From Escherichia phage vB_EcoM_NBG1, in sequence record MH243438.1: a stretch of 64,000 nucleotides of DNA; one strand, 5' to 3'. A program made the position numbers and the translations under genes. Below are positions 9,474-14,022 of the stretch, piece by piece; position 1 is the first letter of the stretch; each line of letters begins with the position of its first letter. The notes under the pieces were generated by a model. It made no database searches, was not told where the DNA came from, and saw only the letters and a list, made by a program, of their open reading frames with translations.

Positions 9474-9779
9474 TTAATTTTTCCAACTTAACAACTTGTA
9501 GTGTCCTTCATTCATACATGGTTTATCCCAAGAAATACTAATATATGATTCACCGTCAATAGAAGTCGCCGGGTTTTTCTCTACCGTAAGACCTTCACTT
9601 TCCAGCCATTCAATAGTATTTGCGCATAAATCGGAAGAACACCTCATCGGAAACCTGCAAGATTTTTCACCTTTAGCTGCAGTGTTATACATCTTTTCTA
9701 AAATACGCTTTTGCACGTTTTTAAAAATAGTTTCAGCAGATTCTTCAGATTTTTTATTCAGTTCAGTGTAAAGACTCAT
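9474..9779 (-). CDS. hypothetical protein
   Basis: 101 aa; SD GAGGAAAA; cassette upstream. Confidence 0.5.
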   Translation of the reverse strand: MSLYTELNKKSEESAETIFKNVQKRILEKMYNTAAKGEKSCRFPMRCSSDLCANTIEWLESEGLTVEKNPATSIDGESYISISWDKPCMNEGHYKLLSWKN

Positions 9780-9840
9780 AATATTTTCCTCATGTTTTTA
9801 TAGGTCTATAGTAACACATCTAGGGAAGAAGTAAACAACT
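9780..9840 (-). promoter_or_regulatory. early promoter/stem-loop cassette
   Basis: Minus-strand: GTTTACTTCTTCCCTAGATGTGTTACTATAGACCTATAAAAACATGAGGAAAATATTATG. Confidence 0.55.
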
Positions 9841-9868
9841 TTATGAAATATTTTTATGCCCTAGATGC

Positions 9869-9897
9869 CAAAAAGCCCCAACCTTTCGGAAGGGGCT
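9869..9897 (-). terminator. rho-independent terminator (AGCCCCUUCC-GAAA-GGUUGGGGCU then UUUUU)
   Basis: Long GC stem with GAAA tetraloop followed by U-run on the minus strand, closing the tRNA/small-ORF transcription unit. Confidence 0.6.
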
Positions 9898-9934
9898 ATG
9901 CCTTGCGGCAACCTTGTCGGGGTTCCACCTGCTA

Positions 9935-10205
9935 AGGCAAGTGTTTGTACGAAACGCCGGGATTCGAACCCGGTTATTAAGCAGTTGACGCTACTCAATA
10001 TTTTTAAAAGGCCATATCTCGACCATATCCGAACGTTCCGTCAAAAACGCTACTCGGCTTACGGCAAATATATTTCCTCGAATCGATAATTCTGTGCGCC
10101 GTTTCTGCTGTGATGTAAGGGGATATTAACAAATCGTAAAGATTTATTAAGACCAGTCCTTACTCAGGGAACATCAGTCCGACGACTTACCGGTAGCGAC
10201 CCGGC
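9935..10205 (-). ncRNA. non-coding stretch with tRNA-like T-arm (CCGGGUUCGAAUCCCGG); candidate stable small RNA or tRNA remnant
   Basis: No ORF with SD; perfect T-arm motif at ~9955-9975 but no acceptor-stem partner found; T4 encodes small stable RNAs next to its tRNAs. Confidence 0.25.
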
Positions 10206-10208
10206 TTC

Positions 10209-10553
10209 TTATTTTGGCATATCATCAATTTGCTCTCGACGCCGACGCCATAGATTAATCGCTTCATTGGCACATTCTGCGTTTGGTATATGACGGCAGT
10301 AATATAATGATTCGCGTTTCTGGAACCGATGTTGCAACGGGATTTCGTTTAAAAGGTCTTTACGGTCAAAGTATTCAAAACTAGTTAACCCAGAACGGTT
10401 TTTAATGAACTTCCAATGGCCGAATTCATTTTGAACATAGATGTAATCTGCATGTTGGTATAACAAATTAATCAATCGGTCTGAAATAACTGTATCATTT
10501 TCGTTAAAATAAAACGTTAAATCATGAACTACCAAATAAATATTGCCTTTCAT
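10209..10553 (-). CDS. hypothetical protein
   Basis: Start moved to ATG 10553 (MKGNIY) after GAGGA, so the gene no longer overlaps the tRNA. Confidence 0.5.
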   Translation of the reverse strand: MKGNIYLVVHDLTFYFNENDTVISDRLINLLYQHADYIYVQNEFGHWKFIKNRSGLTSFEYFDRKDLLNEIPLQHRFQKRESLYYCRHIPNAECANEAINLWRRRREQIDDMPK

Positions 10554-10571
10554 ATTTTCCTCACTTAAAGT

Positions 10572-10648
10572 TGGCCGAGACAGAAGGATTCTAACCTTCA
10601 ACCTACGGATTAGAATTCCGTTGCTCTATACAATTGAGCTATGCCTCG
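10572..10648 (-). tRNA. tRNA-Arg (anticodon UCU)
   Basis: Hand-folded cloverleaf: 7-bp acceptor stem (one GU), D-stem GCUC/GAGC, anticodon stem ACGGA/UCCGU with loop AUUCUAA, T-arm GAAGG-UUAGAAU-CCUUC, encoded CCA. Confidence 0.8.
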
Positions 10649-10654
10649 AATATA

Positions 10655-10728
10655 TGACCCAGACCAGATTCGAACTGGTAACCTTTCCCTTATGAGGGGA
10701 CTGCTGCTAACCATTGAGCTACAGGGCC
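10655..10728 (-). tRNA. tRNA with CAU anticodon (Met, or Ile if lysidine-modified)
   Basis: Acceptor stem 6/7 bp, perfect T-arm ACCAG-UUCGAAU-CUGGU, loop CUCAUAA; D-arm and anticodon stem weaker (3-4 bp); no encoded CCA. Confidence 0.6.
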
Positions 10729-10805
10729 TAAATAACTTTCTATTATGAAAGGCACTTTAGAGCACCTTTGGTAATAGAGGGTAGATTAATAATAACACAT
10801 AATTC

Positions 10806-11321
10806 TTAAAGCAAATCAATCATTTTAACAGTCGGCAAAACAATTTCTTCTTCAATATAAGCGAATTCAACACGTTCAACTACACGCAAGAAATCATAGT
10901 CGTAGTATTCGGAAGCATAGCCAAGAATATCAATAAGTCCTTGAGATATCTCATCGCCTTTCACAAAGAACAGGTCGAATACGCGGGCTTCGTCTTCTTC
11001 AGATTTATCACCAAGGTCTACTTCGATACCAAAGACCTTTTTAATAAATTCCGGTTGGAGTTGGTCTGAGAACAGTCCTTCAACCAAGTATTCATAGATT
11101 AAAAGCGAGCAATCACTGAATGGTGTATTACCACAATAACGTTCGGCTTTAGTGCTAGAATGACGACTCTTAAATTTCTTCAAGAGATATTTAAACTGTT
11201 GGAGCTCATGCTCTTCTACACCAAATAATGTTTTGGTTTTATAGTTGTCGCCGTCATTTTCCCAAGTAGTGACATCAATTACGTAACCCTTAGGAATTGT
11301 ACTGCCTAAACAAATATTCAT
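10806..11321 (-). CDS. hypothetical protein
   Basis: 171 aa ORF with ATG start, immediately upstream of the tRNAs. Confidence 0.5.
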   Translation of the reverse strand: MNICLGSTIPKGYVIDVTTWENDGDNYKTKTLFGVEEHELQQFKYLLKKFKSRHSSTKAERYCGNTPFSDCSLLIYEYLVEGLFSDQLQPEFIKKVFGIEVDLGDKSEEDEARVFDLFFVKGDEISQGLIDILGYASEYYDYDFLRVVERVEFAYIEEEIVLPTVKMIDLL

Positions 11322-13287: not shown

Positions 13288-14022
13288 TTACCTTAAGATT
13301 GTTTCAATTTTAGAATAAAGCTCTTCTAAAGAGCCGTCGTTTGTAATAACTAAATCGCCTTCTTCAATAGGCAACCCAGCTTCTGTAATATGTTTATCAG
13401 TGGATTCCGTACCAGAGCGAACCACATGAATAACTGTAGCACCCATCGCTCTAGCGGTTTCCATTTCATGGACTTGGCGTGTATCGGTCACAACATAGTA
13501 ATCGAAATCACTTCCAATATAATCCATATAGTTTAATGCAAAAAGTTTAACCCAATACATACGGTCAAATAAATTAACGACAACATCCGTACCGAGGGCT
13601 TGCATAAGACGGCGGATTGACCATGTGTCGTTGATATTATTTATAGCTTCACGCAGGGCTTCATATGGTTTAATATCTAGATACGAATATCCACCTTCTA
13701 ACGATGATAATACTTTAACATTATTAATCGGTAAATATTGACTTTGCAAATAAATTAGCGCTTCTTCCAATAATTCAATAACATCCAACTTATTGAGATT
13801 TAATGGTGTTTCACGGTCGTATCCAATGCCTTCAAAGTATTCGTATTTCAACTCTGTGAATACATCAGGATTTTCAGCATGTTTACGCCCCCAGGCTATT
13901 GCTAGAGCGTCTTTAATCGGATACGCCAATTGGTATTTTACGGATTTAAAGTTTGAATTGATGTAATCAGCAGTGGTGTCTTTACCACTACGTTTGATGC
14001 CACTTAAAAAGATTAGCTCCAT
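13288..14022 (-). CDS. 1: deoxynucleoside monophosphate kinase
   Basis: Near-identical to recalled T4 gp1 (IFLSG.KRSGKDTTAD...). Confidence 0.9.
   Translation of the reverse strand: MELIFLSGIKRSGKDTTADYINSNFKSVKYQLAYPIKDALAIAWGRKHAENPDVFTELKYEYFEGIGYDRETPLNLNKLDVIELLEEALIYLQSQYLPINNVKVLSSLEGGYSYLDIKPYEALREAINNINDTWSIRRLMQALGTDVVVNLFDRMYWVKLFALNYMDYIGSDFDYYVVTDTRQVHEMETARAMGATVIHVVRSGTESTDKHITEAGLPIEEGDLVITNDGSLEELYSKIETILR

Follow-up and report, generated by a model that had tools for sequence, protein, structure and literature searches.

What is encoded by the non-coding stretch that follows the tRNA genes of Escherichia phage vB_EcoM_NBG1 (MH243438.1)? In the 64,000 nucleotides (nt) of this phage analysed here (hereafter, the window), an earlier note, made from the sequence alone, had seen two tRNA genes and, downstream of them, a stretch with a perfect tRNA T-arm and a terminator, which it took for either a decayed tRNA or a small stable RNA comparable to species 1 and species 2 of phage T4. 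Our analysis supports the second reading. We put at roughly 90% the probability that the region is the distal half of a tRNA operon, comprising on the minus strand a conserved candidate promoter of the middle type, tRNA-Ile2(CAU), tRNA-Arg(UCU), a 114-amino-acid (aa) open reading frame (ORF), rnaD, rnaC, a trailer and an intrinsic terminator. Within it, rnaC is a conserved 139-nt RNA whose modelled fold is a tRNA-shaped four-way junction. Both the pair of tRNAs in RB69-type phages and the species 1 and 2 RNAs of T4 are already known, textbook features, to which the structural details of rnaC are a modest addition.

A megablast search with positions 9800-10800 of the window returned 779 phage records, the best of which were Mosigvirus (RB69-like) phages at 95-96% identity; by this similarity, the window is DNA of a Mosigvirus, an RB69-like T-even phage. 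Its tRNA region agrees in gene order and in both tRNAs with those annotated in the relatives pEB20 and ATK47. In the T4 reference record, tRNA-Arg is followed directly by rnaD (species 2 RNA; 119 nt) and rnaC (species 1 RNA; 139 nt), and the record of ATK47, a close relative, already carries the annotation 'rnaC; small stable RNA; species 1 RNA' at the homologous place. In the window, the non-coding stretch is bounded by the 114-aa ORF, at its stop codon, and by the terminator (10209 to 9870), which makes it about 340 nt long and not the ∼270 nt first estimated. It contains orthologues of both T4 RNAs on the minus strand: the sequence at 9948..10086 is identical to annotated T4 rnaC at 136 of 139 positions (98%), over the full length and without gaps, and that at 10094..10212 is identical to annotated T4 rnaD at 105 of 120. 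The order tRNA-Arg, rnaD, rnaC, trailer and terminator matches that of T4. The two rnaC genes have the same length (139 nt), operon position and predicted fold, and differ by three substitutions.

Homologues of rnaC were collected from phage records and viral contigs, giving a set of 21 and then of 33 distinct sequences, all of 138-141 nt, from seven genera (Tequatro-, Mosig-, Gapriver-, Karam-, Winkler-, Gelderland- and Marfavirus). True homologues scored between 100 and 165 bits with a covariance model built from this set, and rnaC of the window scored 158.8 bits. Pattern matches in bacterial and archaeal genomes (at least 120 loci) were all attributed to chance, the best reaching 15 bits with the covariance model, and no cellular rnaC homologue was found among those listed. 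Likewise, 50 of 53 metagenome pattern matches were rejected as chance, none of these 50 attaining E ≤ 0.01 and the best having 22 bits; 2 of 22 matches in viral contigs (L030 and L037) obtained no covariance-model score.

In the minimum free energy (MFE) structure of rnaC, nt 2-4 and 7-8 pair with nt 135-137 and 131-132, just 3′ of the T-arm, and close a four-way junction (z = −2.45). The T-arm is the perfect one seen before, CCGGGUUCGAAUCCCGG, and occupies nt 114-130 of rnaC (9973-9957). The acceptor-like stem is formed by nt 2-8 with nt 131-137 (10085-10079 with 9956-9950), contains an invariant UU/UU internal loop and runs directly into the 5-base-pair (bp) T-stem. The other two branches in the consensus fold are a long arm I (nt 9-77) and an arm II (nt 87-112, ∼10000-9975). 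RNAalifold recovered the same four-way junction from the alignment, with compensatory changes in 26 of 42 pairs. Across the 33 homologues, 96.7% of alignment cells held standard pairs (97.6% with the 21 sequences), as against 36-49% when the partners were slid; 27 of the 46 pairs had changed on both sides, and none of 500 shuffles reached any of these measures. The 21-sequence set agreed. Pairs of both the acceptor-like stem and the T-stem covary: the acceptor pair 4:135 is A-U in 15 sequences and G-C in 18, and the middle pair of the T-stem is G-C, U-A or A-U. A whole-region MFE fold that disrupts the T-arm was discarded, as covariation does not support it.

These results give the T-arm the partner that it had been thought to lack, a strand at nt 2-8 (10079-10085) lying ∼125 nt upstream and supported by covariation. 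Of the earlier observation as a whole, the two tRNAs, the T-arm and the terminator are thus present, whereas the statements that there is no matching acceptor stem and that the element is a remnant did not hold. In this modelled fold, a seven-position acceptor-like stem is stacked on a canonical T-arm, the 69-nt arm stands in for the D-arm and the 10-bp arm for the anticodon arm. The loops that crown the two arms, UUGAC on arm I (10044-10040) and GUCAA on arm II (9989-9985), are complementary to each other. Both are invariant among the homologues except in the Marfavirus type, where they have changed jointly to UUGGC and GCCAA, and we tentatively regard them as a candidate kissing-loop or dimerisation contact.

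The likeness to tRNA extends from the shape of rnaC to its genomic surroundings. In Karamvirus and Gelderlandvirus, rnaC has tRNA-Trp on one side and tRNA-Gly on the other, and in a Winklervirus it is flanked by tRNA-Phe and tRNA-Trp (L005:1502-1642, L008:1428-1566, L016:406-544, L019:326-465 and L021:291-429 for the three genera). The spacers on its sides in those arrays measure 4-6 nt, as they do between the tRNAs themselves, and neither rnaD nor the trailer adjoins it. Conversely, the Dhakavirus phages JS98 and IME341 have rnaD joined directly to the trailer, and what they lack is exactly the rnaC module with its spacers. The 3′ flank of rnaC, U-ACA-AA, is one substitution away from the N-CCA-AA that ends the neighbouring tRNAs; copies of the Marfavirus type encode U-CCA-A (L017:400-539, L027-L029, L168 and L207), all other copies U-ACA. 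In two relatives, ARAGORN reports a 95-nt 'tRNA-Met' or 'tRNA-Phe' that is in fact the 3′ two-thirds of rnaC (L006:1551-1645 and L026:7816-7911). Taken together, array position, spacers, 3′ flank, absence as a module in Dhakavirus and ARAGORN miscalls show rnaC to be under strong purifying selection and to behave as a module resembling a tRNA gene, and not as a decaying pseudogene.

With canonical tRNA, and with tRNA-like RNAs that tRNA enzymes process (the tRNA-like domain of tmRNA, YrlA), rnaC shares an acceptor-like stem set on a 5-bp T-stem with a UUCGAAU loop. Its likeness to them also covers the place in tRNA arrays, the spacers and the 3′ flank, besides the miscalling of part of it by ARAGORN in two relatives. 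It differs from a canonical tRNA in having no D-arm and no 7-nt anticodon loop, and in carrying instead the 69-nt and 10-bp arms with their mutually complementary loops. The Rfam models of tmRNA, YrlA and tRNA give no match to rnaC. More generally, neither rnaC nor rnaD matched any of the 4,227 models of Rfam 15 at the gathering score, only the two tRNAs of the region doing so; a permissive Rfam scan over rnaC produced sub-threshold matches to tRNA-Sec (16.6 bits, cutoff 47) and isrK (16.5 bits).

The rnaD orthologue precedes rnaC with a spacer of 7 nt in the window versus 6 nt in T4. In the consensus fold of 16 homologues, the 5′ hairpin carries a 7-nt loop on 5 bp, and its closing pair is a covarying one, either A-U or G-C; next comes a long irregular hairpin, the base of which is conserved while the tip exists in three alternative forms. 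Folded by itself, the rnaD sequence has z = −2.5. The architecture of a 5′ hairpin and a long hairpin is common to T4 rnaD, and so are the 5′ 47 nt and the 3′ 22 nt, which are conserved; the tip of the long hairpin differs, being one of three versions found among relatives. A pairing of the 5′ region of rnaD with the trailer, noticed by eye, was dropped, since the variable position concerned covaries within rnaD's own 5′ hairpin. In the Gaprivervirus TH54 (L023:621-730), the place of rnaC after rnaD is taken by unrelated sequence with two similar hairpin repeats (AGCGGACGGTGCGTCCGGTA and AGCGGATGGTGCATCCGGTA).

Downstream of rnaC, the 78 nt that lead to the end of the U-tract (9870-9947) are nearly identical to those of T4. 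They begin with a trailer (9898..9947), identified from folds and conservation, in which three small hairpins are predicted (9943-9926, 9924-9910 and 9909-9900). The trailer is nearly invariant in Tequatro-, Mosig-, Gapriver- and Dhakavirus, with conservation ending at the U-tract, and it is kept in Dhakavirus phages without rnaC. Conservation of the 78 nt (also at L007:1622-1700 and L022:617-695) is as high as that of rnaC in the four genera, and they are annotated in no record examined. The modelled structure of the trailer is weakly supported because covariation there is minimal. The trailer may represent an RNA of its own that ends with the terminator, or else a group of signals for processing.

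The trailer leads into an intrinsic terminator at 9870..9897. As the earlier note had proposed, folding shows a G+C-rich hairpin with a GAAA tetraloop (9897-9874), AGCCCC-UU-CC-GAAA-GG-UU-GGGGCU, and a tract of five U's (9874-9870), the first of which also takes part in the closing A-U pair of the hairpin. A simple, strict terminator scan made no call at 9870-9897, because the stem of this hairpin contains a UU/UU internal loop.

How would such an operon be expressed? In T4, a middle promoter lies just upstream of the tRNA cluster, and a primary transcript of ∼1.75 kb spans the entire cluster, with its end beyond the species I gene; the tRNAs and the species I and II RNAs all derive from this precursor (PMC2330249). 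By analogy with T4 and from the anatomy described above, the whole unit in the window would be transcribed as one precursor, which host tRNA-processing enzymes would then cut up. The minihelix made by the acceptor-like stem and the T-arm could present rnaC as a substrate of the RNase P type and lend it a tRNA-like stability. In addition, rnaC would be handled and inherited like a tRNA gene, because in other genera it sits in tRNA arrays with 4-6 nt spacers. Both RNAC and RNAD were detected by RNA sequencing, with northern-blot validation, in T4 infection (PMC9697503); the accumulation of rnaC as a discrete stable RNA of ∼140 nt, shown for T4 in that study, is likely here by analogy.

As for function, our best guess, held with low confidence, is that rnaC mimics tRNA, occupying or titrating a host factor that binds tRNA. 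Spelled out in full, this proposal has rnaC as a functional mimic derived from a tRNA gene, with an acceptor/T-arm that would enter the host RNase P, CCA-adding and modification pathways and with invariant complementary loops that would lock the non-tRNA body; the RNA would act as a decoy for a host tRNA-binding factor, such as a tRNA-targeting defence nuclease, and rnaD with the trailer would form a separate, terminator-ended regulatory RNA. We consider this complete version rather unlikely. If true, the tRNA-mimic reading would give these RNAs, orphans since the 1970s, a role. A 2025 evolution study reported one convergent rnaD single nucleotide polymorphism (SNP) in a T4-like phage, with virulence on host ECOR34 rising from 0.17 to 0.98 (PMC12685909), which suggests that rnaC and rnaD matter for host-specific infection. 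The covariation-supported fold of rnaC, its complementary invariant loops and its tRNA-array context provide concrete mutants for probing function.

Several points weigh against the interpretation of the locus as a tRNA-like operon unit. Tools made for tRNAs do not accept rnaC: neither ARAGORN nor the Rfam model RF00005 makes a call at 9948-10086. Its encoded 3′ end is U-ACA and not N-CCA, except in the Marfavirus type. Cleavage by RNase P is suggested by the shape of the modelled fold, and the stability and exact ends ascribed to the RNAs of this phage are taken from T4. Processing may follow another route than in T4, because in the window the 114-aa ORF separates tRNA-Arg from rnaD. The contact between the two loops is a candidate only, because the compensatory change is a single event in one clade, and the role of rnaC as mimic or decoy is a conjecture.

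Among other explanations, the one that survives best holds that rnaD, rnaC and the trailer act only in cis, as processing sites, 3′ stabiliser and terminator of the tRNA and ORF transcript, the stable RNAs being by-products. The absence of any function found in ∼50 years (PMC3014915, PMC9697503) speaks for it, as do the conservation of trailer and terminator together, which stops precisely at the U-tract, and the persistence of the rnaD and trailer unit without rnaC in Dhakavirus. However, a cis role at the 3′ end of an operon cannot explain the conservation of rnaC, because in Karam-, Gelderland- and Winklervirus it stands free in mid-array, with no rnaD, trailer or terminator adjoining it. 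The invariance of its loop sequences also argues against a purely cis role, and so does the single convergent rnaD SNP that, in a T4-like phage, raised virulence from 0.17 to 0.98 on a semi-permissive host (PMC12685909). We judge that this explanation is quite improbable.

Far weaker is the view of the T-arm stretch as a decaying tRNA pseudogene, left by the loss of most tRNAs of the T4 type; a decayed tRNA was one of the two alternatives in the earlier note. A perfect T-arm at which tRNA finders make no call, and a 3′ flank (U-ACA-AA) that resembles N-CCA-AA with one change and is CCA in the Marfavirus-type copies, are what such a relic might look like, and they make an ancient origin of rnaC from a tRNA gene plausible. 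Yet rnaC is identical to that of T4 at 136 of 139 positions, while rnaD is 88% and tRNA-Arg ∼52% identical between the same two phages; a length of 138-141 nt has been held in 33 distinct homologues from seven genera, and compensatory changes occur in 27 of 46 pairs. The element is also present in T4, whose set of eight tRNAs is complete, and the T4 RNA accumulates (PMC9697503). The probability left to ongoing decay is very small, and the tRNA-gene-like module described above accounts for rnaC instead.

That the stretch encodes small proteins, as might be thought from ORFs of 42-74 aa that overlap it on both strands and from the hypothetical-protein coding sequences (CDSs) over the homologous region in many phage records, is next to excluded: any one frame is open across rnaC in 14 of the 33 homologues at most, indels of 1-2 nt shift the frames, substitutions are paired across stems and not concentrated at third codon positions, and the T4 products are characterised RNAs (PMC3014915). 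In many GenBank records, hypothetical proteins, or even tRNAs, are annotated over rnaC and rnaD. Identifying the two genes is also a matter of annotation hygiene, as many phage records carry CDSs over them or call part of rnaC a tRNA, and no Rfam model matches them.

Upstream of these RNAs, exactly two tRNA genes were found in the 64-kb window by ARAGORN, and Rfam at the gathering threshold agreed. They are tRNA-Arg(UCU), which reads AGA and has an encoded CCA (10572-10648; Rfam 65.6 bits), and a tRNA with anticodon CAU, of the Ile2 (lysidine) type reading AUA (10655-10728; Rfam 54 bits). The count of only two tRNAs, versus eight annotated in T4, was therefore right, and tRNA-finding software gave no additional intact tRNA in the window. 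A permissive Rfam scan of 9750-10800 revealed no further tRNA either, the best extra match being the tRNA-Sec model already mentioned, at 16.6 bits. RB69 was likewise published with two tRNAs and T4 with eight (PMC1524935). Mosigvirus phages differ in how many tRNAs they encode: AV113 (L024, 1-416) has Met, Tyr, Asn and Arg tRNAs; in that phage tRNA-Arg abuts rnaD as in T4, and ORF150c is missing.

The CAU tRNA is identical to annotated T4 tRNA-Ile at 73 of 74 positions. Its sequence contains the pairs C4-G69 and C5-G68, which we take to be TilS determinants. On sequence grounds, it has the body of an Ile-type and not of a Met-type tRNA, and it is assigned to the lysidine-type Ile tRNAs, which would decode AUA once modified. 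This agrees with the initial suggestion that it reads AUA if lysidinylated, and with Nolan et al., who listed the CAU tRNA of RB69 as 'Ile CAU*' and treated it as a lysidine-modified Ile tRNA (PMC1524935).

By contrast with its neighbour, tRNA-Arg(UCU) is identical to JS98 tRNA-Arg at 62 of 77 positions but to T4 tRNA-Arg at only 43 of 83, and by these comparisons it belongs to the JS98-type lineage and not to that of the T4 allele. Its T-loop, UUAGAAU, is unusual and has A at position 56, and its D-loop lacks the GG pair; compared with the copies in ATK47 and pEB20, the tRNA differs at position 32 and at the discriminator base.

The codons read by the two tRNAs are frequent in the phage. Of the Arg codons in the window's long ORFs, 18.4% are AGA, and of the Ile codons 17.7% are AUA; in 42 annotated genes of E. 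coli K-12, the corresponding shares are 2.3% and 4.2%. The phage thus uses them ∼5-7 times more often than they are used in the E. coli sample, in which, as first remarked, both are rare.

Ahead of the CAU tRNA lies a candidate MotA-dependent middle promoter of the operon (10789..10816), recognised as a near-match to sequence upstream of T4 tRNA-Gln. It consists of a MotA-box-like ATTTGCTTTA (10816-10807), a 12-nt spacer and a −10 element TATTAT (10794-10789), and an almost identical ATTTGCTTTA-N12-TATTAT arrangement precedes T4 tRNA-Gln; by this analogy, a middle-promoter role is probable. Regarding late promoters, no TATAAATA was present near the region, the nearest on the minus strand being at 13638. 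The leader 3′ of the candidate promoter contains a conserved 8-bp hairpin (AAAGGUGC...GUGCCUUU), and the upstream gene trna.2 is 87% identical to its T4 protein.

Between tRNA-Arg and rnaD, where T4 has no ORF and rnaD abuts tRNA-Arg, the window contains the 114-aa ORF (10209..10553), which resembles RB69ORF150c and overlaps rnaD, at the latter's 5′ end, with its stop codon. The ORF is annotated in relatives and has a match to phrog_3355 (E = 1.3 × 10−50; function unknown). Pfam gave no match above threshold for this ORF, and Pfam and PHROGs together supplied no function for it or for its neighbours.

Just beyond the terminator, the window departs from the tRNA region of other RB69-like phages. 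Together with phage PHB12, it lacks at this place (∼9780-9869) a segment of ∼545 bp that most close relatives carry, pEB20 and ATK47 among them; where present, as at L002:1604-2068 and the equivalent place in L001, the segment contains a 154-aa ORF that belongs to phrog_2280 (function unknown).

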